From an uncultured Treponema sp. (GTDB taxonomy: Bacteria > Spirochaetota > Spirochaetia > Treponematales > Treponemataceae): a stretch of DNA of 64,000 nucleotides. The position numbers were made by a program, and so were the translations under genes. Location: assembly GCA_964606655.1 (NCBI GenBank), contig CAZSHF010000005.1, forward strand, positions 4,888 through 68,887, written 5' to 3'. Below, one piece after another: positions 4,036 to 62,523 of this stretch; the first letter of the stretch is position 1, and every line of letters begins with the position of its first letter. The notes beneath the pieces are model-generated. The model did not search any database, was not told the DNA's origin, and saw only the letters and a list, made by a program, of their open reading frames with translations.

Positions 4036-6956
4036 TAAAACACCCCCGGAATTCTTATCAGGTCTGGATCGTGGTCAGAAAGGTTGTAGTGGTTGTTTCT
4101 TGTGAACATAGAGTCGATGTGCGGAATGAAGCACACTTTCCTCCACTCGCCTGAAGTTTGCGCCGCCTCCGCGTTTCCGCCTACTTCTGTCAACGCTTTC
4201 TGATACAGGAACGGAGAAACATAAACGTGGTCAATCTGCTGGTAGTTTCCGTTGTAGACATAAGAGAACCGCTCATTCTTAGGCATGAACTCTTCTGTAA
4301 GGCTGTAGAGAATCTGGTTTCTGTTTATCGCGCCTGTAAGGACCTGCATAGGATTTGAGTAGGCGAAATCGTTCATGTCGCCCGCGACGACAATCTTCGC
4401 GTCCGCGTCAAGGTCAAGGATTTCCTGCACGAACCTGTTCACTGTTGCAGCCTGTCCGTTCCGCTTGACTTCAGAAAGAAGAAGCGGAGGCTGGACGCTT
4501 CCGTAAAGAGGATAGTCGCCGCGCTTGCTGCTTAAATGGCAGGCGACGACAAAGAAATTCTTGTCTGTCGTGTTTCCGCTTGAATCCTTTATCCTGAACT
4601 CTCCGATTAAAGGGCGTCGGCTCCGCGCGAAATAAGAGCTTTCAATGTAAGCCGGACTCTGCGAGAGGTGTGGTTTTCCGTCTTCGCCTTTGAAAGGATA
4701 AGTCCGCGCGTCCGCCAATGCCCAGCCGGCAGGATCATTGTCCTTGGTCTGAACCGGCCATTCGCTTTCATCCAGGAGGCTGTTTGATGAATCGTGTGTG
4801 TTCGCGTATGTGTTAGAGACAAGCCCGTTGTCCACGAACTCGACTCTCTGCGTGTTGTACATAAATCCGTTACGGATATTCACGCCGCTTTTTCCGCCCG
4901 AGTCGCGTTCCTTAGGGTCAATGCAGCGGAACTCGTATCTCGGGCCGCCGTTCGCTACAATCGCGTCGCTTATCGTTGAAAAGTTCCTGACCGCAGTTAC
5001 AATTCCGTCGCGCGGAGCGTACTCGTTGTCCTGGTTTGTGTACAAGGAAGAAGTCTTAGCGTCGTCTCCCATCTCGACAATGACAACCACGTCCGGGTAA
5101 AGCATATTGTTCTTGATTGTCAGGGCGACCTGCTCGCATTTGCTGTAAGTCGAGCCTTGAGCCTCGTAGTTCTCAAGGTTGAACGCTCCGACTGTAAGGC
5201 TTGTTTCGTTTGTGTTTCCTGTCTGGCTTGAGCTTTCGCTTGTCCAGTCCGGAGTGAAAACCGAGCCCGCGTTGAAGCCTGCGGCGTTAGTTCCTGTCCG
5301 CCACTGACGGACTGTTATTCCGTTTCCGCTTGTATTTGATGTGTTTGCCTGTGCCTGCATTCCGCTTGTGACATTTGTTTTTGAGACTGTGCCGAACGCG
5401 GAATCGTCAAGCTTTGTGTACCAGGATTCAGAGCCGTCAAATCCCCACTTGCCAGGATAAGCAGAAGTTCCTCTGTTTGGGTCTGCCTGATTTGGGACCG
5501 TCTGTCCAGAATAAGTTTGTAGGGTTCTTGTGCTTCCCTTGTATGTGTATGTTGTGTAGTAGGAAGTTATGTAGTTCGCCGCAGTCGACTGCACATACAT
5601 CGCGGCCTCGCTGTTCAGAGGACGCGCGATGTAGATTCCTGTAATGTAGTCCAGGACACCTCGGAAAACTTTCGCGCCTGTCGAATCGACCAGAGTGTCG
5701 CCTGTCTGCGCAAGGCTCTGCCTGTACGCGGAAAAATCGAACGCGGCATAGTCAACAAATAAAAGCTCCTCGTTGTAGTCGTCCTTGTCCACGACATTTG
5801 TCATCCAGGTATCGTTGAATGTGCGGAATCTGGTTCCGTCCTCTTTGTATCCGCCGTCCGCAAGAACGCCAGTCGTGTTGTAGTAAGTTCCCGCGATTAC
5901 AAGGGGATTGTCGATGTAAACCACCGAACATTCCATTGTCTCAAGGACTTTTATAGCCTCGTCCATCGGCGCGGAAGAATCTACATCGCCGACCATGACG
6001 CGCGCTTCGCCGGGATAAGTGACTCCCTCGTAAGTGTACGACCTGTCGGTTTTCCACTGGTCGGCTTTTGTCTGGCTGTAAGTTATAAGAATTCCGTCAG
6101 GATAAGGCGCAGTCTTGTACGCTCCGTTTTCCTCGACGCGGATTACAGTCTCGGCGTTTATTTCTGTGCGCGAAAGTGTCGCGGTCGAAGAGCCGAACCT
6201 GTCAAGGATTCTTGATTCCGCGACAACGCCGGAAACCGTGACAACATCGCCAGCCTGAAGGTCGGTCGGAATTCCGCTTTTCCATTTTGAGTCGCTGAAA
6301 GATTCGTCGTGAGTGTTTACAAAAATCGCGTTGGATTTTGCGCCTGAAAAGTCTTTGTCGGCGGGCAAGGCTTCAAGATAAAAGCCGTCGTTTCCGACAT
6401 ACTGGGCGATGTCTTCGCCCTCGACATTGGAATTGTTGTAGTTCCAGTTGGCCGCCTTGTTCGAAATCATCGTGACAACACCTGTGATTCCGTAGACAGT
6501 CTCGCCGGTCAAAGGAGATTTTGCGCCAGAACCTTGAATGTCGGAAATCGTGAGAGCGCCGGCAGGAACAGCGGTGAAGTCCACGCCGGAGACAACGCCG
6601 TTCACTGCGGAAGAGCCGACATTAAGACCTGAACCGTAATTCAGGCTTCCGGAGGCTTTGAAGTCCGGAACAAAGATGTAGGACGCTTTTTTTGCGATGA
6701 CTTGGCAGGTGTTTTTTCCAAGTCCTGAAAGCTCGTAGTTTCCGCTGGAATCTGTCTCAACAGATCCTATACCCCCCCCCATCACGGAAATTACGACGCC
6801 GGCAACAGGATTTGAATCCCTGTCCGTTACAGTTCCCCTTATTGAATAGTTTCCGGTCTTGCTGGAGCCGTCAAGCTGGTTGCAGCCCAGAAAACCGCCC
6901 AATCCAAGAAAGAGAACCAATGCGTAAAAAGTAAAGGTTGTTCTTTTCATAATCAT
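4035..6956 (-). CDS. Extracellular endonuclease/exonuclease/phosphatase (EEP) nuclease lipoprotein with OB-fold and carboxypeptidase-regulatory-like domains
   Basis: Lipobox FLGC; ISDIQG..SPL..ITGVVT OB motif; GAFNLEN, CHLSSK, GDMND, QIDHVYVS, SDHDP EEP motifs. Confidence 0.88.
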   Translation of the reverse strand: MIMKRTTFTFYALVLFLGLGGFLGCNQLDGSSKTGNYSIRGTVTDRDSNPVAGVVISVMGGGIGSVETDSSGNYELSGLGKNTCQVIAKKASYIFVPDFKASGSLNYGSGLNVGSSAVNGVVSGVDFTAVPAGALTISDIQGSGAKSPLTGETVYGITGVVTMISNKAANWNYNNSNVEGEDIAQYVGNDGFYLEALPADKDFSGAKSNAIFVNTHDESFSDSKWKSGIPTDLQAGDVVTVSGVVAESRILDRFGSSTATLSRTEINAETVIRVEENGAYKTAPYPDGILITYSQTKADQWKTDRSYTYEGVTYPGEARVMVGDVDSSAPMDEAIKVLETMECSVVYIDNPLVIAGTYYNTTGVLADGGYKEDGTRFRTFNDTWMTNVVDKDDYNEELLFVDYAAFDFSAYRQSLAQTGDTLVDSTGAKVFRGVLDYITGIYIARPLNSEAAMYVQSTAANYITSYYTTYTYKGSTRTLQTYSGQTVPNQADPNRGTSAYPGKWGFDGSESWYTKLDDSAFGTVSKTNVTSGMQAQANTSNTSGNGITVRQWRTGTNAAGFNAGSVFTPDWTSESSSQTGNTNETSLTVGAFNLENYEAQGSTYSKCEQVALTIKNNMLYPDVVVIVEMGDDAKTSSLYTNQDNEYAPRDGIVTAVRNFSTISDAIVANGGPRYEFRCIDPKERDSGGKSGVNIRNGFMYNTQRVEFVDNGLVSNTYANTHDSSNSLLDESEWPVQTKDNDPAGWALADARTYPFKGEDGKPHLSQSPAYIESSYFARSRRPLIGEFRIKDSSGNTTDKNFFVVACHLSSKRGDYPLYGSVQPPLLLSEVKRNGQAATVNRFVQEILDLDADAKIVVAGDMNDFAYSNPMQVLTGAINRNQILYSLTEEFMPKNERFSYVYNGNYQQIDHVYVSPFLYQKALTEVGGNAEAAQTSGEWRKVCFIPHIDSMFTRNNHYNLSDHDPDLIRIPGVF

Positions 6957-8856: not shown

Positions 8857-9086
8857 CTCGATTTATATTAGCACGTATTCACCAATTGTAAATCAAAATA
8901 AATCTTGCAAACCACTCTCTCTCCCGATGTTTTCAAATCAGCGAAAATTCACTATATTAGACCTCGTTAGCACAATGCAACTTGTCCGATGCTGACAAAC
9001 ACGTCTTCCGCATTATAATTTTTATAAAAAGTTTGCTGATTATAATGCGGAAGCCGTGACTTACAAGACACATTTTGGAGATTTTT

Positions 9087-11024
9087 ATGGACTTAGCAGA
9101 AATCGACGAGAACGGAAAAGGGCTTTTATTCTTCGGAAAGACAAAAGTCGAACGGTGCGAAATCGTTCCCGGACAGCCGAATGTATATCTTCTTCAGACA
9201 ACTGAAATCACGGAACGGAACACGCAAATCGGGCCGAAGCCGGGGCAGTTTTATCTTATAAAAAGCGTGCTTTCCGGCGTGACTTACAACCGTCCGATAA
9301 GCGTCTACCGCTGCGAGGAAAAAAACGGAATCGGCGGAAAAAAAGAGTTCACGATTCAGTTTCTGATTCTTGAAAAAGGACGCGGGACCCAGGAGCTTTG
9401 CCATCTGAAAGTCGGCGACGAGATTTCCATAATCGGGCCTTTGGGAAATGTCTGGCCGGAGCCTGAAAGCGGACTTCTTTCTTCGGACAAAAATCCGAAC
9501 CCGAAAATCTGCATAGTCGGAGGCGGAATCGGTGTCGCTCCTGTCGCTAACCTAGCCTCTTCGCTTCCTGCAAAATCATACGACTTTTACGCATCGTTCA
9601 AGTCAGGCTCTTACGGACTTGAAAACATAAACGCGGAAAACCTGATAATCACGACCGACGACGGTTCAGTCGGAATACACGGAATGCTTCCCGCCGCGCT
9701 TTCAAAAGAGGCGGTTTTAAAAGCGGGCTACAAAGTGATTTACGCCTGCGGACCTACGCCGATGCTGAACTACGTGAAAAACCTTTCAGACGAACTCGGA
9801 ATAAAATGCTGGATAAGCATGGAGCACAGAATGCTCTGCGGACTTGGCGCGTGCCTCGGCTGCACCCTTGAAACCACAGAAGGACTAAAACGATGCTGCA
9901 AGGACGGCCCTGTTTTCGACGCGAAAATAGTCCAGTTTGAAAAGCCTTCTCCTCGCCGCACTCCTCTTCCAAAAGACATGGAGCCGGACCTGAGCGTGAA
10001 AATCGCGGGCGTCAGGTTCAAGAATCCTGTCATCGCAAGCGGCGGAACATTCGCGTTCGGACAGAATTTCAGGGGCGTTTCAGATGTATCGTACTGGGGC
10101 GGAATTGTGTCAAAGGGCGTGACATTCGAGCCGCGCGAAGGAAACCACGGAGAACGGAGCTTTGAAGTTCCGGGCGGAAACATGAACTCAATCGGGCTGA
10201 ACAATCCGGGAATTCCGTATTTTGCAAAAGAGCTTCTTCCAAAAATGATTGGATTAGGTCCTGTCGTAATCGCGAACCTTGCCGGAAGCGACATTGAATC
10301 CTATGTCGAAGGCGCGATAATCCTTGACAAGACAGACTGCGACATAATCGAGCTGAACATTTCCTGCCCGAACATAAAAGCCGCAGGACTTGCCTGGGGA
10401 ATGAGCGCGGAGACAGCATATTACTGCGTTTCGGCTGTCAGGCTTGCGACAACAAAACCGCTTATGGTAAAACTTTCGCCGAACGCGCCGGACAACAGGC
10501 CGATTGCGGTCGCCTGCATAAAAGCCGGAGCGGACGCGATAAGCCTTATAAACATGATTCACGGAGTCGCGATTGACATTGAAAAGGCAAAGCCGTTCTT
10601 CAACAATATCCACGCAGGATATTCAGGCCCGGGAATCAAGCCTATCGCGCTCAGGAATGTCTACGATGTCGCGGCCGAAATAAACAAACTCCCTGAAGAG
10701 CAGAGAGTTCCGATTATCGGAATCGGCGGAATCACAACATGGCAGGACGCTGCGGAATTCATTATGGCAGGAGCAAGCGCGGTCGAAATCGGACAGGCGA
10801 AATTCACAAATCCAGATGTCGCTCTGGATGTCGTGAACGGACTTAAAAATTTTATGAAAACACACGGCTACAAAAACATCGAGGAAATGCGCGGAATCGC
10901 CCAGGTCGAAAAGCCGACGCACAGAACAGACGAAAAAGGCTACTATCAGGATCTGAAAGATATGATTCTGAAAGACAAACCGATTATCGCAAACCTGCAC
11001 AGACGCAAGACGGACAGGAAATAG
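9087..11024 (+). CDS. pyrD: Fused dihydroorotate dehydrogenase electron-transfer subunit (PyrK) and catalytic subunit B (PyrD)
   Basis: RPISV, GGGIGVAP, CGP, M.CG.GAC.GC..CCKDGPVF (PyrK); NPVIASGGT, ELNISCPN, KLSPN, SGPGIKPIAL, IIGIGGI (PyrD). Confidence 0.93.
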   Translation: MDLAEIDENGKGLLFFGKTKVERCEIVPGQPNVYLLQTTEITERNTQIGPKPGQFYLIKSVLSGVTYNRPISVYRCEEKNGIGGKKEFTIQFLILEKGRGTQELCHLKVGDEISIIGPLGNVWPEPESGLLSSDKNPNPKICIVGGGIGVAPVANLASSLPAKSYDFYASFKSGSYGLENINAENLIITTDDGSVGIHGMLPAALSKEAVLKAGYKVIYACGPTPMLNYVKNLSDELGIKCWISMEHRMLCGLGACLGCTLETTEGLKRCCKDGPVFDAKIVQFEKPSPRRTPLPKDMEPDLSVKIAGVRFKNPVIASGGTFAFGQNFRGVSDVSYWGGIVSKGVTFEPREGNHGERSFEVPGGNMNSIGLNNPGIPYFAKELLPKMIGLGPVVIANLAGSDIESYVEGAIILDKTDCDIIELNISCPNIKAAGLAWGMSAETAYYCVSAVRLATTKPLMVKLSPNAPDNRPIAVACIKAGADAISLINMIHGVAIDIEKAKPFFNNIHAGYSGPGIKPIALRNVYDVAAEINKLPEEQRVPIIGIGGITTWQDAAEFIMAGASAVEIGQAKFTNPDVALDVVNGLKNFMKTHGYKNIEEMRGIAQVEKPTHRTDEKGYYQDLKDMILKDKPIIANLHRRKTDRK

Positions 11025-24636: not shown

Positions 24637-25002
24637 CTATCTAAGCCATTTGTTCAGAAGAAGCTTGAGCCTTTTTTCGTCAAGCTCCTCGCCTGCTCCG
24701 TCGATTTTGTACAGAATCGGAACATTGTATTTTTTGGCGATATTGTCCGCCGCAAAGCAGAATGTGTCCGCATGAAAAGCAAGGTTTCCAAGTCCGACGA
24801 CCGCCTTGATTTTTGCCGCGTTGGCTTTCACAAACGAATCGACTGTCGGCGGAGTTTCGCCCTGCCCTGTCGTGTATGTAAAAAGAATGAAATTGTCGTC
24901 GATTTTCTCATCGCCTTTTACAATTTTAAGCGGCTCTTTTACCGCAAGTCTGTTAAGCAAGGCTTCTGTTTTGCCTTGGCTTGTAGCATAAACTACTTTC
25001 AT
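24637..25002 (-). CDS. nrdI: NrdI flavodoxin-like protein
   Basis: VVYATSQGKT, LFTYTTGQGETP, VVGLGN..F..TFCFAADNIAKKYNVP; RBS GGAGG. Confidence 0.8.
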   Translation of the reverse strand: MKVVYATSQGKTEALLNRLAVKEPLKIVKGDEKIDDNFILFTYTTGQGETPPTVDSFVKANAAKIKAVVGLGNLAFHADTFCFAADNIAKKYNVPILYKIDGAGEELDEKRLKLLLNKWLR

Positions 25003-25284
25003 AAGTTTGCCTCCGTTAAACTGAACCGAAATCTGATTCAAGATTTAATTAAAAATAATATGCCTGTTCGACAGCTTTGTTATCGCCCAAGCCGTCGGGT
25101 TTAAAATATACATTTTCGCTTTCAGATTTACAAGAAATTCTTTTTCCAGCCCGCGTGTTTTTTCGGTCTTTGAACCGATTTTACGCCTAGTTGAGAAATA
25201 TTCTTTTGCACTCCGCGGCAGTTTTTCTAGAACTTGCAGGAATTTATGTTGACATCAGGATTCTCTTAATCTAATTTTTATCCT

Positions 25285-26598: not shown

Positions 26599-26631
26599 TT
26601 GATAAATCAAAAGAAGGGTTAAAAAAAAGAC

Positions 26632-26704
26632 TGGAGATAATCGGACTTGAACCGACGACCCTCTGATTGCGAACCAGATGCTCTACCAACTGAGCTATAT
26701 CCCC
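26632..26704 (-). tRNA. tRNA-Ala(CGC)
   Basis: GGGGATATAGCTCAGTTGGTAGAGC..TCTGG TTCGCAA TCAGA..GGTTCAAGTCC..TATCTCCA; G3:U70 Ala determinant. Confidence 0.96.
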
Positions 26705-26820
26705 AAGTGATGTTGAGAGTATAGCATTTTTTGCGCGACTTGTGCAATTTACTTTTTGAAAAAAAATCACCAAAATGAAAGAAAATATATACACAATCGA
26801 CAACGGGAGAAATAAAAAAC

Positions 26821-50386: not shown

Positions 50387-51190
50387 TCATCTTTTCATCT
50401 TTCTGTATTCCATTGGAGAGACATTGAACGCTTCCTTAAAAGCCGCGCCGAATTTGCTCTGGCTTTCGTAGCCGACTTCAAAAGCGACTTCGCAGATGTT
50501 TTTGTCTGTCTTCACAAGAATCTCGGCGGCTTTCTCCATCCTGTGCGTTTTTATGTGCGAGGCGACAGACGAGCCGTAAACATCTTTGAAAACTGTCTTC
50601 AAAGTCGTCGCGTTCATCGCAAACTCTTTTGCAAGCTCTTCTATAGTAATCCGCTTTGAAAGGTTTTCCATTAAATAATCGTGGACTTTCCTAATCTTTA
50701 AAATCTGGTTTCTGCTGTATTCCGAATCGTCAGAAAAATCCACGCCAAAATCCTTCTCTATTTTTTCAAGTTCTTTTTTTTCAAGAGCTTCGTAGGAGCT
50801 GTCAAAATCCGGGCAAGTCATAGACATAAGTTTTTCGATGATTTTATGAAACTCTCTGCATTTTTCAGTTTTCGCCGCAGAATAAAAAACCTCTTTTCCG
50901 TCGCGGTAAGATTCGACAAGCCCGAATTCCTTTAAAAGCTTCAGATGATGGGAAACAGCAGGTCCTGTCATCTTCATAATGTTCGCGACATCCTGCACAG
51001 ATTCTTTTGAATGGCAGAGAATCCAGAATATTTTAAGCCGGCTCGCGTCCGAAAGAAGCGAGAAAACCTGCGAGGCGGCCAGAAACTCGTTCTCGTTATT
51101 AAGTTCGCTTCTGATAAAATCAATCTTGAAATATTTCCGCGTCCGTTCATTGTTTTCCCGAGGATTTTCACTTTTTCCGTTTTTTTCCAT
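50387..51190 (-). CDS. ArsR/SmtB-AraC fused transcriptional regulator
   Basis: N: LSDASRLKIFWIL..VSHHLKLLK..GLVESYRDGKEVFY; C: ITIEELAKEF..RMEKAAEIL..VAFEVGYESQSKFGAAFK..SPMEYR. Confidence 0.85.
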   Translation of the reverse strand: MEKNGKSENPRENNERTRKYFKIDFIRSELNNENEFLAASQVFSLLSDASRLKIFWILCHSKESVQDVANIMKMTGPAVSHHLKLLKEFGLVESYRDGKEVFYSAAKTEKCREFHKIIEKLMSMTCPDFDSSYEALEKKELEKIEKDFGVDFSDDSEYSRNQILKIRKVHDYLMENLSKRITIEELAKEFAMNATTLKTVFKDVYGSSVASHIKTHRMEKAAEILVKTDKNICEVAFEVGYESQSKFGAAFKEAFNVSPMEYRKMKR

Positions 51191-51587: not shown

Positions 51588-51803
51588 AAAAATCACGGTT
51601 AAGCCGCGTTTTTGAAAAATGCGTTTTAATTCTTCGGAATGAACAAGACCGCGGAAACACAGGCGAAAGATTACAAAAGTCCAGAGTTTTCAGAACGAAC
51701 TGAAACAGACCGGAAAAAATCCGGCAAACTATGATAAATCGACTGAACAAATCGCCTGAAACAACTCAAACATCCTGAAAACCATAAAAAATGGAGAAAA
51801 AAA

Positions 51804-54062: not shown

Positions 54063-54329
54063 CCCCAAATGTCGACTTTTACGAAACCATTCAAAAATGC
54101 AGTCTCGGCAAGAACCCGATTATGAAAAACGGCTTCCGCGTTCGTCAAAAACTGTGATGGTTGAGCAAGTCGAAACCACCATGCAAGCATTGTTTGCAAC
54201 TTTTAAGTTTTCCGTACTCACTTGTGCAGATTGTTTTTCAAATCGGAACCTTGCCTGCGTGCATTTTTTATTGTTTGCAAAGAAAATCGACATTTGGGTT
54301 ATCAAATTTACAAAAGTCGACATTTGAGG
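54063..54329 (+). mobile_element. Rod-hairpin repeat, copy 4 (doubled right end)
   Basis: CCCCAAATGTCGACTTTT...AAAATCGACATTTGGG...AAAAGTCGACATTTGAGG. Confidence 0.85.
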
Positions 54330-54482
54330 TAAAAAAAATCCGCAAAAAAAACAGAAAGCACAACAAAAAAACGCAAAAACCACTTTTCCAGAAATTCAAA
54401 AAAACCGGGGTCAAAATTCCGGAACGGCAAAGTTCCTGGTTTCAAATTCAAAACGCGTCAGAACGAATCCTAGAGGGCAGTT

Positions 54483-54672
54483 TTCTAATATTTAAAATTT
54501 ATTTATTTATTATTTACTTTTTATATATATTCTCTTTATTTATTTAATTATTTATAAATATGTTTATTTATATAAATAAACTTTCTTACTATTTTTATTT
54601 ATTTTTACTTTACTTTTTATTTATTCCAAGATAATATATTTACATATTTAATTATTTATTTCTTTAATTAAA
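54483..54672. repeat. Extremely AT-rich tract with recurring TTTATTTA; candidate centromere (parS/parC) and par promoter
   Basis: About 190 bp with very few G/C, directly upstream of parA. Confidence 0.55.
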
Positions 54673-54685
54673 GAGGTTTGTTTTT

Positions 54686-55432
54686 ATGAAAATCGTGACA
54701 ATCACAAATCAGAAAGGCGGCGTCGGAAAAACGACAACAGCAAGCTCTCTCTTCGCAGGTCTTCATAAAGCCGGAAAAAAGACGCTCGCGATTGACATGG
54801 ATTCGCAGTGCAATCTTTCCTACTGCTTCAAGGCGGATTCAAAAAACCCATCAATCGTAAATGTTTTCCGCGGAGAAGTTTCCCTTAAAGACGCGGTCAG
54901 AAAAACAGAAGCCGGCGATTTTGTCCAGTCGGACAAAAACCTCGACAACGTGATGACAGAGCTGAGCGCTCTGGACAAAGTGTACAAGCTTTCAAAAGTC
55001 CTCAAGGAAATCAAAGACGAATACGACTATGTCATAATCGACACGCCACCCGCGCTTTCGCCGCTCACAATAAACTCTCTTGTCGCAAGCAATTCAGTGA
55101 TAATTCCTGTCCAGGCGGATTCCTTTTCGATGCAGGGAGCGGAGGCACTCGCCGAGACAATCAAAGGAATCCGCGAAGTGAACGAGAACCTTGAAATCGC
55201 AGGTATTCTAATCGTCCGCTACAAGGGAAGGGCAGGGCTTGCCCAGCACATGAACAAAAAGTTCGAGGACTTCTCTAAAATTTTCGGGACAAAGGTTTTC
55301 GAGACAAAAATCCGCGACGCGATTGCAATCCAGGAATCCCAGCTCGCGCGGAAAAACATTTTCGACTACGACAGCACATCAAATGTGGCCTTGGATTACG
55401 CAAACTTTGTGAAGGAGTTCATAAATGGCTAA
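54686..55432 (+). CDS. parA: ParA family partition ATPase (no N-terminal HTH)
   Basis: NQKGGVGKTTT, AIDMDSQCN, IIDTPPAL, IPVQAD. Confidence 0.95.
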   Translation: MKIVTITNQKGGVGKTTTASSLFAGLHKAGKKTLAIDMDSQCNLSYCFKADSKNPSIVNVFRGEVSLKDAVRKTEAGDFVQSDKNLDNVMTELSALDKVYKLSKVLKEIKDEYDYVIIDTPPALSPLTINSLVASNSVIIPVQADSFSMQGAEALAETIKGIREVNENLEIAGILIVRYKGRAGLAQHMNKKFEDFSKIFGTKVFETKIRDAIAIQESQLARKNIFDYDSTSNVALDYANFVKEFING

Positions 55433-55856
55433 AAATTTCGAGCAGTACGACGATTCTCCGGTGATGTCTTATCTTTCAAAAGCGAAAGAGGAAGTAAAAC
55501 TTGCCTCCGACGCGAACCAGATTTTAAAGTCCGCCGCGGAAAATCCGGCATCAGAACAAAGCGAAACCAGGACAGATGCGCCTTCAATCCAAAGCGAAAA
55601 TCAAGAAAACATTGCTGGACAAACTCAGGAAACCACGCGGAAAACCGAAGCGGAGCAGACAAGCCAGATTGTCCCAGAGCCAAAAAAAATTCTTATGAAC
55701 ATAAGCATCAGGGAAACGACAAAAAAGGACTGGAAGATGTTTTTCCTTGAGCACGATTTGTCCATGACCCAAGGAATAGAGACCGCCGTGGAGTTCTTAA
55801 AAAGCGAAGTGGAGAAGGGGAACATCAGGCTTTCAAAAGGCGGAATCACAAAATGA
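55425..55856 (+). CDS. Small ParA partner, probable RHH-type centromere-binding protein
   Basis: Overlaps parA stop; disordered N-terminus, then ILMNISIRETTKKDWKMFFLEHDLSMTQGIETAVEFL (beta-helix-helix). Confidence 0.65.
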   Translation: MAKNFEQYDDSPVMSYLSKAKEEVKLASDANQILKSAAENPASEQSETRTDAPSIQSENQENIAGQTQETTRKTEAEQTSQIVPEPKKILMNISIRETTKKDWKMFFLEHDLSMTQGIETAVEFLKSEVEKGNIRLSKGGITK

Positions 55857-55876
55857 GCCGCAAAAAAGCGGAAAAA

Positions 55877-56914
55877 TCAGTTTTCCTTTGAGACCGCGGC
55901 AAATTCCGGCTTTGCGGAAACCTCTTCTGTCCTGCCGGAATTGTCCAGCTCCTCTTTCAGTTTTATAATCGCGCGTATTTCAGGCGAAAGAGGATTGAAC
56001 AGGTCGGGATTGTTTTTCTCCTCATCAAGGATTTCCGCGTAACGCAGAGGATTCTGAGAGATTATTTTTATCGCCTCAAGATGAAGTTCCTCCCGTGAAG
56101 TTTCTCTGCTGGTTTCAGAAACCTTTCTTTCATCAGAAAGATAAAGATAGTTTCCGCGTTCTATTCTTGCGATTTTTGTAGAGTCTATGCAGTCAAAATG
56201 GAAGCCTATAATTTTTCGGCTTTTCTTTATCGGGGTCGCGACAATCTGAATCCCGAGATTCCGCTCGTTCAGTTCCTTGAGAGGAAGCTCAATCACTGTG
56301 TTCTTGAAAGGTCCCATCTGGGCGTATTCGTCCGGCTGGATGTCAAAAAGCTTTCTCAGGTCCTCGACAGAATATTCAAAGAACCAGGAATTTTTTATGT
56401 TTCCCTTTTTTCCTTTGAATCCGCTGAATGAAATCGCGATAAGATAATAGCGCAACGCGTAGAACGATTTCAGTTTTCCGAGGTCGTTTATCTCAAAAAG
56501 GGAGAATCCGATTTCCTTAAGCTCGTCCAGAAAAACCTTCATGTCTTCCGTGAACTTGAAAGAAAATGTTGTTTCCGTGAATACGCATTTTGCCGACTGG
56601 AAAACGTTTGTGACTGCGTACTGGCTTTCATTGTCTTCAAGGACTATTTTCATGTCCAGAATCTCGTTCGCTGATTCCTTTATCAGTGTCCTTGTCTTCA
56701 TTCCGTCGCTTAAATTCAGGTCGTTGAAAAAGTCAGAGAATGAGAATGAGACAATGTTGTCGTTTTTTGACGATGAAAGGTATTTGAAGATTGAGTAGAA
56801 ATACATTCTTTGCGTGGTCGCTGAGCATTTGTAGCTTGCGCGCAGAAAATTGTTCGGAATCTTCAAGATGTTTGACGATTCTGTTCCTTTTATTATCAGC
56901 GATTTTCTTTTCAA
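55877..56914 (-). CDS. Replication initiator protein (Rep_3/RepB family)
   Basis: TTG start with RBS AAGGAAAG; IPNNFLRASY, KLKSFYALRYY, SVEDLRKLFDI..Y..FKNTVIELPLKELNE, KKSRKIIGFHF; iterons directly upstream. Confidence 0.88.
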   Translation of the reverse strand: MKRKSLIIKGTESSNILKIPNNFLRASYKCSATTQRMYFYSIFKYLSSSKNDNIVSFSFSDFFNDLNLSDGMKTRTLIKESANEILDMKIVLEDNESQYAVTNVFQSAKCVFTETTFSFKFTEDMKVFLDELKEIGFSLFEINDLGKLKSFYALRYYLIAISFSGFKGKKGNIKNSWFFEYSVEDLRKLFDIQPDEYAQMGPFKNTVIELPLKELNERNLGIQIVATPIKKSRKIIGFHFDCIDSTKIARIERGNYLYLSDERKVSETSRETSREELHLEAIKIISQNPLRYAEILDEEKNNPDLFNPLSPEIRAIIKLKEELDNSGRTEEVSAKPEFAAVSKEN

Positions 56915-56997
56915 GTCTGCCTTTCCTTTTAAATTTTTTAATATTAAATTTTACAGGAGGTTTAATTCTTTTCATTGTAACGATTTACGGCTTCCTA

Positions 56998-57692
56998 AGA
57001 TTAGATAAGTCCATCTAAAAATTAGTCAAGTCCAGAAACAGATTAGTCAAGTCCAGTTTGCGATTACAAAAGTCCAAGCCAAGCATAAAAAGAACGAATT
57101 TTTCCACCCGGAGAACATTATAAGCCTAAAGATTAGTTAAGTCCATCGTTTTTTTCGTATAAATCAGAAAAGTCCACGGATTCTGGGTTTTTAGGCTTTG
57201 AATTGCGCGGCGGAAAAGCGAAAAGTCTGAGGCGGGCGGAAATATATTTTTTTTCAGGCTCGGCTTTTTCCTCTTCTTTCTGTTTTCTGTGGTTTTTCCG
57301 TTTTTTAAAGATTACAAAAGTCCATGATTTTCAATAGATTTTCTGTGCCAGATATTATTGAAGTCCATTAAAGATTAGCAAAGTCCATTCTGGAAAAGTT
57401 TTGCAAAGCGGACAAAGATTATAAAAGTCCGCCGAAAGATTATGAAAGTCCAGCCTTGAAGTTGACAGAATCTCAGTTTGTCTTTATTTCACGAAAGATT
57501 ACAGAAGTCCATCGAAAAGCCATGAAAATCCAAAGAAATATGCGGAAATCCGTGTTTTTTCCATCTGAATCGGTTGGATTTTCTGCCAAAGAACCGAAAA
57601 AGAGAGGAAATTATTTTAAATATTTTGGTGGACAGAATTTTTAAAGATTACAAAAGTCCATCAAGAAAAAGACGAAAGATTATGAAAGTCCA
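56998..57692 (+). repeat. Iteron array / replication origin (14 copies, consensus AGATTANNNAAGTCCA)
   Basis: Copies start at 56998, 57019, 57040, 57061 (21-bp period), 57130, 57161, 57309, 57352, 57372, 57416, 57437, 57496, 57645, 57677; all in the same orientation. Confidence 0.92.
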
Positions 57693-57878: not shown

Positions 57879-58844
57879 ATGAAAACAGAAGAGAATGTGA
57901 ATGAGCAGGAAAAAACTGTTCTTGAAAAGATAGAAAACGCGGATTCTGTTCTGGTTGGCGCGGGAGCAGGGCTTTCTTCAAGCGCGGGATTTCTTTACGA
58001 CGGCGAAAGATTCCGTAAGTATTTTTCGGATTTTTCAGAGAAATATAAATTCCGCGATATGTATTCAGGCGGATTTTACAATTATAAGACTCCTGAAGAG
58101 ATGTGGGCGTTCTGGAGCAGATATATTTTCATAAACCGTTATATGAATCCGCCGAAAAGCGTTTATTCAGACCTGCTCAATCTTGTCCGCGGAAAAGATT
58201 ATTTTGTAATCACTACAAATGTCGACCATTGTTTCCAGAAGGCAGGATTCGACAAGAAAAGGCTTTTTTACACGCAGGGAGATTACGGGCTTTGGCAATG
58301 TTCTGTTCCGTGCCATGACAAGACTTACGGCAATGAAGAGACTGTAAGGAAAATGGTCTTATCCCAAGGCTTTAGGATAGAAAAAAAACAAGACGGAGAA
58401 GAGCTTTCGCTTCCTGAAGATACAGAAAAACTGAAAATGGAAGTTCCTTCTGAACTTGTTCCGCATTGTCCTGTCTGCGGCGAGCTGATGTCGATGAATC
58501 TGAGGGCTGACGGAAGTTTTGTCGAGGACAAAGGATGGAAGCGCGCTTCGGAAAATTACAGCCTTTTTCTTGAAAGGCACAGGGATTCAAAGATTGTGTA
58601 TCTTGAGCTTGGCGTCGGGGCGAACACGCCGGGAATCATAAAATATCCGTTCTGGAATATGACCTACCAGAATTCGGATGCCACTTACATCTGCATAAAC
58701 AAAGGCGAGGCGGTTGTTCCTTTTGAAATAAAAAACAGGTCTGTCTGTGTTGACAAAAACATTTTCGAGTTTTTTAAATCGATTGGAAAAACGGCTGAGA
58801 AAGTGGTTGAGAAAGCGTCCGCGGAAAAATTGTCCGCAGATTAA
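57879..58844 (+). CDS. Macrodomain-linked sirtuin (SirTM, class M)
   Basis: GAGAGLS, TTNVDHCF, QGDYG..QC, CPVCG..NLR.D, LELGVGANTPGIIK. Confidence 0.88.
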   Translation: MKTEENVNEQEKTVLEKIENADSVLVGAGAGLSSSAGFLYDGERFRKYFSDFSEKYKFRDMYSGGFYNYKTPEEMWAFWSRYIFINRYMNPPKSVYSDLLNLVRGKDYFVITTNVDHCFQKAGFDKKRLFYTQGDYGLWQCSVPCHDKTYGNEETVRKMVLSQGFRIEKKQDGEELSLPEDTEKLKMEVPSELVPHCPVCGELMSMNLRADGSFVEDKGWKRASENYSLFLERHRDSKIVYLELGVGANTPGIIKYPFWNMTYQNSDATYICINKGEAVVPFEIKNRSVCVDKNIFEFFKSIGKTAEKVVEKASAEKLSAD

Positions 58845-58905
58845 AACTTTTTCTATACTATAAACACAATTGAGAGTTGTTTGTTTAATTTTGTCAGGAG
58901 GAATT

Positions 58906-59727
58906 ATGACACAAGACGAGCGCAGGTTCTGGCTGATTCTTTATTTGCTGAAAGAAAATGAGCAGACAGGCGAATATTTTGGGCTTGAGAAGAGCAACGG
59001 CGGCGGATTTGTGATTCCGTCCGGAGAAGAAAACCAGAGAAATCTTCTTCGTGCCTTGATGAATATCCGCGAGCCTTATGAAGCGAGCGAGGAATTCTTC
59101 AGGATTCAGGATGAATATTTAAAGGAGCGGAACCTGGAGCGCGGAATAACTGACTTGGAAAAACTTTCTCCGTTCGGCGCGGACAAACGGATTTATCTCT
59201 GGAAAGGAGACATAACCCTTTTGAACGCCGATGCAATTGTGAACGCCGCGAACAGCCAGCTTTTAGGATGCTTTTCTCCGCTTCATTCGTGCATCGACAA
59301 CTGCATCCACACTTTTTCCGGAATCCAGCTGAGGCTTGAATGCAGCAAGATTATGAAAGAGCAGGGGCATTTTGAAAAGACAGGAAAAGCGAAGATAACA
59401 GGCGCGTATAATCTTCCTTCAAAATATGTTCTTCACACAGTCGGCCCGATTGTACAGAATCTTGTCTTGCCTCAGCATAAAATTCTTCTTGCGGACTGCT
59501 ATAAAAACTGCCTTGATCTTGCGGCGGAAAACAGCATTGAATCGCTTGCGTTCTGCTGCATTTCCACAGGAGTTTTCAATTTTCCTTCAAAACTTGCCGC
59601 GGAAATCGCCGTGAAAACTGTGAAATCGTTTCTGGACAAGAACCCAAAGGCTTCGGTTAAGAAAATTGTGTTCAATGTTTTCAGCGAAAAGGATTTTGGC
59701 ATTTACAAAGGAATCTTGTCAGAATAA
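58906..59727 (+). CDS. Zn-macrodomain protein-ADP-ribose hydrolase
   Basis: LRALMNIR, GDIT..DAIVNAANSQLLGCF.P.H.CIDN.IH, HTVGP, FCCISTGVF. Confidence 0.92.
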   Translation: MTQDERRFWLILYLLKENEQTGEYFGLEKSNGGGFVIPSGEENQRNLLRALMNIREPYEASEEFFRIQDEYLKERNLERGITDLEKLSPFGADKRIYLWKGDITLLNADAIVNAANSQLLGCFSPLHSCIDNCIHTFSGIQLRLECSKIMKEQGHFEKTGKAKITGAYNLPSKYVLHTVGPIVQNLVLPQHKILLADCYKNCLDLAAENSIESLAFCCISTGVFNFPSKLAAEIAVKTVKSFLDKNPKASVKKIVFNVFSEKDFGIYKGILSE

Positions 59728-61869: not shown

Positions 61870-61909
61870 GATATATCTTCTTGACAGATATATCTTTATG
61901 GCATATATT
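61870..61909 (+). promoter_or_regulatory. higBA promoter with twin GATATATC palindromes
   Basis: TTGACA(61881)-17-TATATT(61904); GATATATC at 61870 and 61887 flank the -35 box. Confidence 0.75.
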
Positions 61910-61915
61910 TTGGCT

Positions 61916-62197
61916 ATGATAAAATCATTTTCCGTTTCTGAGACTGAAAAAATCTGGAATGGTAAAAAGTCAGCAAAAATACCGCCTGTCATACATAAAA
62001 GGGCATTTGCTAAACTTCTTATCATCAATTCTGAGGAAAGCGAAGATGATTTAAAAATTCCGCCAGGCAACAAGTTTGAGCGTCTGCTTGGAAATTTAAA
62101 AGATTATTGCTCAATACGGATAAATGACCAGTGGCGGATTCAGTTTAAGTTTCAAAACAATGAAGCCTATGAAGTTCAAATTGTAGATTATCATTGA
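61916..62197 (+). CDS. higB: HigB/RelE-family toxin
   Basis: MIKSF..TEKIW, DLKIPPGNKFERL.G, SIRINDQWRI.F, IVDYH. Confidence 0.92.
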   Translation: MIKSFSVSETEKIWNGKKSAKIPPVIHKRAFAKLLIINSEESEDDLKIPPGNKFERLLGNLKDYCSIRINDQWRIQFKFQNNEAYEVQIVDYH

Positions 62198-62217
62198 TTT
62201 TTTAAGGAGGCTTATTT

Positions 62218-62523
62218 ATGGACAAAATTTTTGAATTGCCAACAGTCGGCGAAATTTTAACGCAAGAATTTCTTGAACCGCTGAACATAACTCCTTATCG
62301 TTTGGCAAAAGATTTGGGCGTTTCAACAAGTACGATTTTGGATTTGGTTCACGGAAAAAGAAAAATTACTGTGGAAATGTCTTTACGACTTTCAAAATAT
62401 TTTGGTACAACATCAAAATTTTGGCTTAATATGCAAAATGAACTTGATCTGCGAACTGCACAACAAAAAATGAAATCTAGTTTGGAAAAAATACCAGTTT
62501 GCAATTATATTGTATCTGCATGA
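62218..62523 (+). CDS. higA: HigA antitoxin
   Basis: GEILTQEFLEPL.IT.YRLAK, KRKITVEMSLRLSKYFGT..FWLNMQ. Confidence 0.93.
   Translation: MDKIFELPTVGEILTQEFLEPLNITPYRLAKDLGVSTSTILDLVHGKRKITVEMSLRLSKYFGTTSKFWLNMQNELDLRTAQQKMKSSLEKIPVCNYIVSA

Follow-up and report, generated by a model that had tools for sequence, protein, structure and literature searches.

We analyzed a stretch of DNA of 64,000 nucleotides (hereafter the window, 64 kb) from an uncultured Treponema species. It covers positions 4888-68887 of contig C5 (CAZSHF010000005.1), which is 69,051 bp long in total, in the assembly GCA_964606655.1. The assembly resembles a metagenome-assembled genome (MAG); it comprises 2.55 Mb on 119 contigs and is 84% complete. 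Coordinates are those of the window unless a contig is named, and the genomes that we compared carry G-numbers, with G000 denoting the source genome. At 54483-57692 the window holds a compact replication and partition cassette: an AT-rich tract, a parA gene with a small partner gene, a convergent gene for a Rep_3-family initiator (rep) and, upstream of rep, an array of iterons. The original prediction, made from the sequence without database searches, had listed these elements, with 14 iterons on one strand, and had read them as the active bidirectional origin of a long-resident secondary chromosome (chromid) or megaplasmid. Our analysis located all of these elements where they had been predicted, and the profile searches for Rep and ParA bore out both family assignments.

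The rep gene (55877-56914, minus strand) starts with TTG and encodes a protein of 345 amino acids. Both winged-helix (WH) domains of a two-domain initiator were recovered with scores that exceed the Pfam gathering cut-offs, namely Rep3_N (WH1; E = 2.2e-16, 61.0 bits, cut-off 22.4) and Rep3_C (WH2; E = 1.4e-12, 48.1 bits, cut-off 21.1). A weak match to the NCBIfam model RepM was also obtained. PLSDB contains no close relative of Rep, the best matches being 29-38% identical and mostly partial, and a search of the PDB gave no sequence match.

Next to rep we found the direct-repeat array that is typical of Rep_3 origins. The iteron motif GATTAnnnAAGTCCA has exactly 14 matches with at most two mismatches at 56999-57692, all of them on the plus strand and within less than 700 bp adjacent to rep. 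The whole window contains 19 matches, compared to 5.5 +/- 2.3 in shuffled sequences, and 19 was reached in 0 of 100 shuffles. Four iterons with an exact spacing of 21 bp (56999-57076, plus strand) lie 85-162 nt upstream of the rep start, and we propose that this phased block is the operator and/or the origin core. A run of 27 nt composed entirely of A and T (56930-56956) adjoins it. The ten further iterons, likewise on the plus strand, begin at 57131, 57162, 57310, 57353, 57373, 57417, 57438, 57497, 57646 and 57678 (to 57692). They are mostly paired at 20-22 bp and scattered over ~560 bp, and are proposed to form an origin and/or copy-control array.

A consensus scan revealed a promoter-like site directed at rep (57117-57145, minus strand; TGGACT-17 nt-TATAAT, 10 of 12 matches). 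Its -35 element, TGGACT, is the 5' half of an iteron. The TATAAT element was kept in all ten aligned upstream regions, with five positions invariant and the sixth present in at least nine of them. With the putative promoter at 57145-57117, the four phased iterons sit between promoter and gene, a layout that would be suited to autorepression. Two exact iteron copies were also found 5-6 kb to the left of the array, one within a gene for an AraC/ArsR-type regulator and the other in the gap preceding cadA (50682-50696 on the minus strand and 51669-51683 on the plus strand). The remaining 2.48 Mb of the genome contain only two exact matches. The 15 nt at 50682-50696, including the three free positions of the motif, are identical in the homologous regulator gene on the Rep contig of the nearest species (G003_C100:6419). 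These remote copies may act as distant Rep-binding sites for looping or handcuffing.

On the other side of rep, the parA gene (54686-55432, plus strand) encodes a small Walker-type partition ATPase of 248 amino acids that matches AAA_31 (E = 4.7e-50) and CbiA (E = 2.3e-19). The NCBIfam model ParA_partition matched as well (E = 9.7e-32), albeit under its equivalog cut-off. The protein carries the deviant Walker A motif KGGVGKT at residues 10-16, and its AAA_31 match starts at residue 1, leaving no space for an N-terminal DNA-binding domain. A small ATPase with a deviant Walker A motif and without an N-terminal helix-turn-helix is what defines a ParA of type Ib. The partner gene (55425-55856, plus strand) overlaps the parA stop and encodes a ParG/ParB-like protein of 143 amino acids, for which neither Pfam nor NCBIfam gave a match. 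An alignment of ten orthologues revealed a conserved N-terminal peptide of 25 amino acids, a variable low-complexity linker and a conserved C-terminal domain of 57 amino acids. In the AlphaFold model an extended segment is followed by two helices, with a predicted local distance difference test score (pLDDT) of 80-90 over residues 91-140. The top Foldseek matches of this model were CopG (template modelling score 0.70 by target), a designed beta-alpha-alpha protein, ParG, Arc and NikR. Since these matches are not significant (E ~2-6), a ribbon-helix-helix (RHH) fold is a likely reading of the domain rather than a demonstrated one, and the layout agrees only weakly with the ParG type. Overall, the predicted iteron/Rep_3 core with type Ib-like partition is supported.

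Directly upstream of parA lies the AT-rich tract of ~200 bp (54483-54685, 90-95% A+T). It reaches 95% A+T in 100-bp windows and contains TTTATTTA repeats phased at ~11 bp. Of 16 related loci that we examined, 11 have an equivalent tract at a distance of ~2.1-2.5 kb from the start of rep. Among the loci that have the tract, every convergent parA has it immediately upstream, regardless of which of two ParA types is encoded. Because of this position next to parA genes of both types, we read the tract as the probable par promoter and centromere (parC-like) and not as the alternative, a DNA-unwinding element.

The cassette recurs in related bacteria. Rep orthologues with 68-87% identity were found in 20 species-level Treponema MAGs, on contigs of up to 107 kb; the long ones measure 102-107 kb, and metagenome contigs with Rep relatives reach 103 kb. 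All close Rep relatives come from MAGs of Treponema sp. that were obtained from cattle, horse and other gut, rumen or faecal samples. At least 16 related loci possess 6-16 iterons upstream of rep, with the same motif, orientation and layout. In 12 related loci the phased block of four copies is found around -99 to -162 relative to the start of rep; in one other it is shifted by ~36 nt, and three have two or three of the four copies. A parA-partner pair of the same kind adjoins rep in nine related loci (ParA 77-92% identical), while seven others have a different ParA. In three loci (L007, L008 and L010) ParA is 90-92% identical to the copy in the window, although Rep is only 76-77% identical. 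Judging from these identities, either ParA is much more constrained than Rep or the cassette may have recombined. One MAG, G051, contains two Rep contigs, L011 (C9) and L014 (C33), each with a Rep that is 76% identical to the query and with the same iteron consensus; their assembler coverage is 53 and 82, respectively. Since two plasmids that share their iterons are expected to be incompatible, this pair may reflect a strain mixture in a co-assembly.

We then asked of the nucleotide skew whether replication starts at this module. The cumulative GC skew of C5 falls over 60 kb and turns up at 59-60 kb, which corresponds to ~54-56 kb of the window, at the rep module (rep is located at 60.8-61.8 kb of C5). 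The skew inversion that had been noticed by eye, and was expected to give an extremum near 57 kb, is thereby real. Four long Rep-bearing contigs of other Treponema species were compared. The skew minimum was located at 75 kb on G001_C9 (rep at 75.6-76.6 kb), at 6 kb on G002_C34 (rep at 7.5-8.5 kb), at the rep-bearing end of G004_C70 and 5-10 kb from the rep-bearing end of G003_C100 (rep at 0.9-1.9 kb). Since a skew might merely mirror gene orientation, we compared leading and lagging genes by their coding-strand skew, with the terminus positions of three contigs taken from the skew itself. On each of the five contigs the GC skew over all codon positions was higher in leading genes than in lagging ones (p = 4e-5 to 0.007; C5, p = 0.0012). 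For the GC skew at third codon positions (GC3 skew) the comparison gave p = 9e-5 to 7e-4 on the four contigs of the relatives, and C5 alone gave p = 0.074. The codon endings behaved as had been predicted: the plus-strand genes cadA and parA in the left arm prefer C and A (GC3 skew -0.30 and -0.20, AT3 skew +0.25 and +0.23), and plus-strand genes to the right of the iterons show the opposite tendency toward G and T, clearest in three of them. Because the skew minimum coincides with the module on contigs of five species, bidirectional replication must have started here over evolutionary time. We conclude from the skew that the rep module serves as a bidirectional origin in a Treponema, or did so until recently, and the claim of an active origin is supported in this sense.

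These data also bear on the possibility that the cassette belongs to an integrated or decaying plasmid in the main chromosome, with a silent origin and a skew change that is nothing but a local effect of gene orientation. The lack of closure of C5, the marginal GC3 test and the short right arm of this contig would be compatible with such a scenario. However, the four other species have the skew minimum at rep as well, on contigs with arms of 40-85 kb and with significant differences between leading and lagging genes, and the three genes of the cassette (rep, parA and that of the partner) are intact and conserved, as are the iterons. As predicted, no integrase was visible: a search for tyrosine integrases (PF00589), the only recombinase family covered, found none on C5. 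Furthermore, the chromosome appears to have an origin of its own. The dnaA gene resides on another contig (G000:C72; 12,353 bp, AT-rich with 37% GC), whose own cumulative GC-skew minimum lies at ~10 kb, at dnaA, and this region is likely the chromosomal oriC. Together, this makes an integrated plasmid very improbable. Whether C5 closes as a replicon separate from the one with dnaA had been posed as a check; the two lie on different contigs, each with its own skew minimum, and C5 showed no closure. A second Rep_3 gene of G000, distantly related with 31% identity, is encoded on C67 (14,260 bp) at ~4296-5246; the cumulative skew minimum of this contig lies ~2 kb from one end, and C67 probably represents another plasmid of this bin.

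The skew also provides an estimate of size. The left arm of C5 extends over at least 60 kb without a visible terminus. Within three contigs skew maxima were found 45-85 kb from rep. These internal maxima suggest replicons of roughly 100-190 kb, which is plasmid-sized and far below a chromosome of 2.5 Mb. For the replicon described here the size is at least 69 kb and, judged by the skew, probably more than 120 kb.

In an 84%-complete, MAG-like assembly of 119 contigs, a plasmid can easily end up in a foreign bin, and C5 could in principle derive from a different organism. Plasmids are often mis-binned, indeed. In composition, few contigs of the bin are more typical than C5 (tetranucleotide r = 0.994; 43.6% GC compared to 42.6% for the genome), although this match is partly circular because binning itself uses composition. 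Evidence for the host assignment that is independent of composition comes from a palindromic repeat element of ~250 bp, resembling miniature inverted-repeat transposable elements (MITE) or repetitive extragenic palindromes (REP). One copy (54063-54330) abuts the AT tract, and further copies are located at ~14375, 20608 and 24214. Copies related to these four are present on 74 of the 119 contigs of G000, including the largest ones. The element is often found at contig ends and therefore probably breaks the assembly. Given in addition that all relatives of Rep stem from Treponema MAGs, we regard a binning artefact as extremely unlikely.

The question whether the replicon is a plasmid or a chromid was addressed by its distribution and by its cargo. 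A chromid in this sense would be an essential, long-resident secondary chromosome that carries the only dihydroorotate dehydrogenase (DHODH) and the only tRNA-Ala(CGC) of the cell. In its favor, C5 combines a plasmid-type origin with a host-like composition and host repeat elements, and it has an established replication skew. The distribution of Rep tells a different story. Of 150 species sampled from the genus, only 8 have a close Rep orthologue (at least 68% identity), and 17 more have only distant Rep_3 genes. The nearest species, G140, has a DnaA 76% identical to that of G000 and the closest Rep of all (87%). In G029 and G051 DnaA is only 45-46% identical to that of G000, yet Rep is 76-78% identical. 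In contrast, no close Rep was found in the nearer species G145, G129 and G118 (DnaA 55-62% identical to G000). This incongruence of Rep and DnaA points to transfer within the genus and not to long vertical residence. Outside the rep-par cassette the Rep contigs have almost nothing in common, G140 as the nearest species being the exception, and their cargo is largely unshared. Searches of the Rep contigs of five genomes for VirD4/TraG (PF02534) and for MOBQ/P-type relaxases (PF03432), the only relaxase family covered, gave no match.

The predicted genes tRNA-Ala(CGC), pyrKD and nrdI (24637-25041) were all confirmed in the window. The pyrK-pyrD fusion (9075-11024) is a class-1B DHODH by NCBIfam. 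Whether pyrD and tRNA-Ala(CGC) are single copy had been posed as a check, and each is indeed present once in the assembly. Moreover, the Rep contig of G140 also carries the pyrKD paralogue together with several other genes in common with C5, which would be expected of a chromid. Phylogenetically, however, the pyrKD of the window falls in a separate paralogue clade (ultrafast bootstrap (UFBoot)/SH-aLRT support of 89/88, or 100/99 with G006_C3 included). All 13 relatives with this paralogue also hold a housekeeping copy, which directly adjoins pyrF in the five genomes checked (5/5). In G011 the two copies are arranged in tandem, the paralogue being placed between pyrF and its housekeeping counterpart (G011:C2:72597-77598), and in G140 and G029 the paralogue is encoded on Rep_3-bearing contigs while the pyrF-linked copy resides on another contig. 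This suggests that the paralogue arose as a tandem duplicate and may later have been captured by plasmids. The assembly of G000 yielded neither pyrF nor a housekeeping pyrKD. With both genes missing at 84% completeness, a single unassembled locus would explain the apparent single copy, which is hence most likely an assembly gap combined with paralogy.

The tRNA-Ala(CGC) gene (26631-26705) is absent from the Rep contig of G140. Of 24 relatives in the same genus, about half have a match at the orthologue level, a distribution that does not help in judging essentiality. The GCG codon can also be read by tRNA-Ala(UGC) through wobble. This second tRNA is missing from the G000 assembly, and our guess is that its gene belongs to an rRNA operon that was not assembled. 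Two other members of the family carry a tRNA-Lys(CTT) gene (G001_C9:17958-18030 and G002_C34:58772-58844), and it seems that individual tRNA genes are repeatedly carried by these plasmids.

Among the annotated genes of the window we saw no universal single-copy marker. The gene content is largely accessory and comprises surface proteins, a restriction-modification pair, an iron ATP-binding cassette (ABC) transporter, a heavy-metal ATPase, regulators, and Fic, macro-domain and redox proteins. Some 4 kb to the right of the iterons, a HigB-like toxin and a HigA antitoxin are encoded (61898-62523, plus strand). HigA matches TIGR02607 (E = 3.4e-30), and HigB-like_toxin and HTH_3 matches were obtained on an identical Logan contig. 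By its position the pair is likely a post-segregational stabilizer of the same replicon. Immediately to the right of the iterons (57879-59727, plus strand) we noted genes for a protein of 321 amino acids with weak similarity to sirtuins (NAD-dependent deacylases) and for a macro-domain protein of 285 amino acids. By analogy, this arrangement is reminiscent of the sirtuin-macrodomain modules that act in ADP-ribosylation.

Measured by the chromid criteria that are said to go back to Harrison et al. 2010, the replicon has plasmid-type replication and partition functions and a composition near that of the chromosome, the latter with the caveat that bins are based on composition. It has neither core genes that are demonstrably unique in this genome nor conservation across the genus or lineage. 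Taken together with its patchy Rep lineage, the incongruence with DnaA, the variable cargo and the accessory nature of the pyrKD paralogue, the notion of a long-resident chromid is not supported; we consider it rather unlikely, and a large plasmid is the better fit. A variant of this idea is that the replicon has become indispensable in the sublineage of G000 and G140 only and is an incipient chromid. This would require a true loss of the pyrF-pyrKD operon in G000, or a need in the gut for the plasmid-borne DHODH paralogue, tRNA-Ala(CGC), nrdI and the redox genes, and it appears unlikely to us.

In our favored interpretation, held with good though not full confidence, a large theta-replicating plasmid, probably of low copy number, resides in a gut Treponema, and the region provides its basic replicon together with its partition cassette. 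The plasmid would belong to a family that has so far been met only in Treponema MAGs from gut, rumen and faeces. In a model of its function, Rep monomers would bind through WH1 and WH2 to the 14 direct iterons upstream of rep, open neighboring AT-rich DNA and load the host replisome, so that forks depart in both directions. Rep would also curb its own synthesis, since half an iteron forms the -35 element of the putative promoter and the four phased iterons follow between promoter and gene. The surplus of dispersed iterons could restrain copy number via titration or handcuffing. The copies would be segregated by ParA and its RHH-like partner through binding to the repeat-rich AT tract in front of parA, and HigBA would penalize loss of the plasmid.

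Several observations weigh against this interpretation, in addition to the circularity of the compositional match and the use of skew-derived termini mentioned above. No DnaA box (at most one mismatch) was found near the iterons, and the window overall is not enriched in such boxes. The strongest AT tract lies 2.3 kb away from the iterons, beyond rep and par. The right arm of C5 measures only ~7 kb. Finally, no end overlap that would indicate circular closure was detected in C5 or in the other long Rep contigs tested, five in all. Since no contig closes, we can only infer that the replicon is circular, how large it is and that it is physically separate from the chromosome. A longer assembly of the same plasmid was not found, the exact Rep protein being present on a single Logan contig of 8.9 kb only; an identical rep is found in the sequencing run SRR10277277.

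In its mechanism the replicon conforms to the standard iteron/Rep_3 theta type, complemented by Walker-type partition and a toxin-antitoxin pair. It shares with the iteron plasmids of the Rep_3 family (F with RepE/oriS, P1 with RepA/oriR, R6K with pi, pPS10 and pSC101 with their RepA proteins, and the RepM plasmids of Acinetobacter and Moraxella) an initiator built of WH1 and WH2, direct repeats spaced ~21-22 bp beside rep in a number that exceeds what an origin alone needs, a promoter that overlaps the repeats and bidirectional replication, for which the skew speaks here. While in F and P1 the ori and inc arrays flank rep, all 14 iterons lie on one side of the gene in the present case. Compared to the characterized Rep_3 plasmids, the sequence is distant, no DnaA box was found nearby and the replicon is far larger than most. 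The partition genes resemble the type Ib systems TP228 ParF-ParG-parH, pB171 par2 and pSM19035 delta-omega in the small Walker ParA without an N-terminal DNA-binding domain, in a small partner whose N-terminal tail is flexible and whose C-terminal domain is modelled as strand-helix-helix, and in the repeat-rich site upstream of parA. They differ from these systems by a partner without a sequence-family match and with a non-significant RHH fold match, and by a putative centromere that is unusually AT-rich (up to 95%).

The only published Rep_3 plasmid of Treponema that our literature search on Treponema megaplasmids and chromids found is the rrn plasmid of Treponema saccharophilum (Anda et al., 2023; PMC10645730; NZ_AP025291.1), which measures 8.4 kb, is small and high-copy, and is essential as the sole carrier of an rrn operon. 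Among the Treponema plasmids in PLSDB it alone matched Rep detectably (37.6% identity over 31% of the query). Both are Rep_3 plasmids of Treponema that carry genes normally found on the chromosome, in that case in a rumen species. In contrast, the plasmid described here is large, possesses par and toxin-antitoxin genes and carries no demonstrably unique core gene. With chromids such as Leptospira chromosome II and Vibrio chromosome 2 it has in common the plasmid-type origin, the host-like composition and the established skew, but it differs from them in that it lacks genus-wide conservation, has variable cargo and no proven essential gene, and amounts, at its estimated size, to only ~4-7% of the genome. 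Our literature searches on Treponema megaplasmids and chromids turned up no account of a chromid in Treponema or of this plasmid family. Should the replicon of G000 and G140 be an incipient chromid after all, Treponema would gain its first report of a chromid-like replicon, driven by a Rep_3/iteron origin of unusual size.

A more general lesson is that, when a MAG is incomplete and paralogues exist, a plasmid gene can be mistaken for the sole copy of a core gene. Hardly any large plasmid of gut or rumen Treponema has been described. The conserved rep-iteron-par cassette is a marker by which plasmid contigs can be spotted in Treponema MAGs, and it is a candidate basic replicon for shuttle vectors in these genetically intractable spirochaetes.

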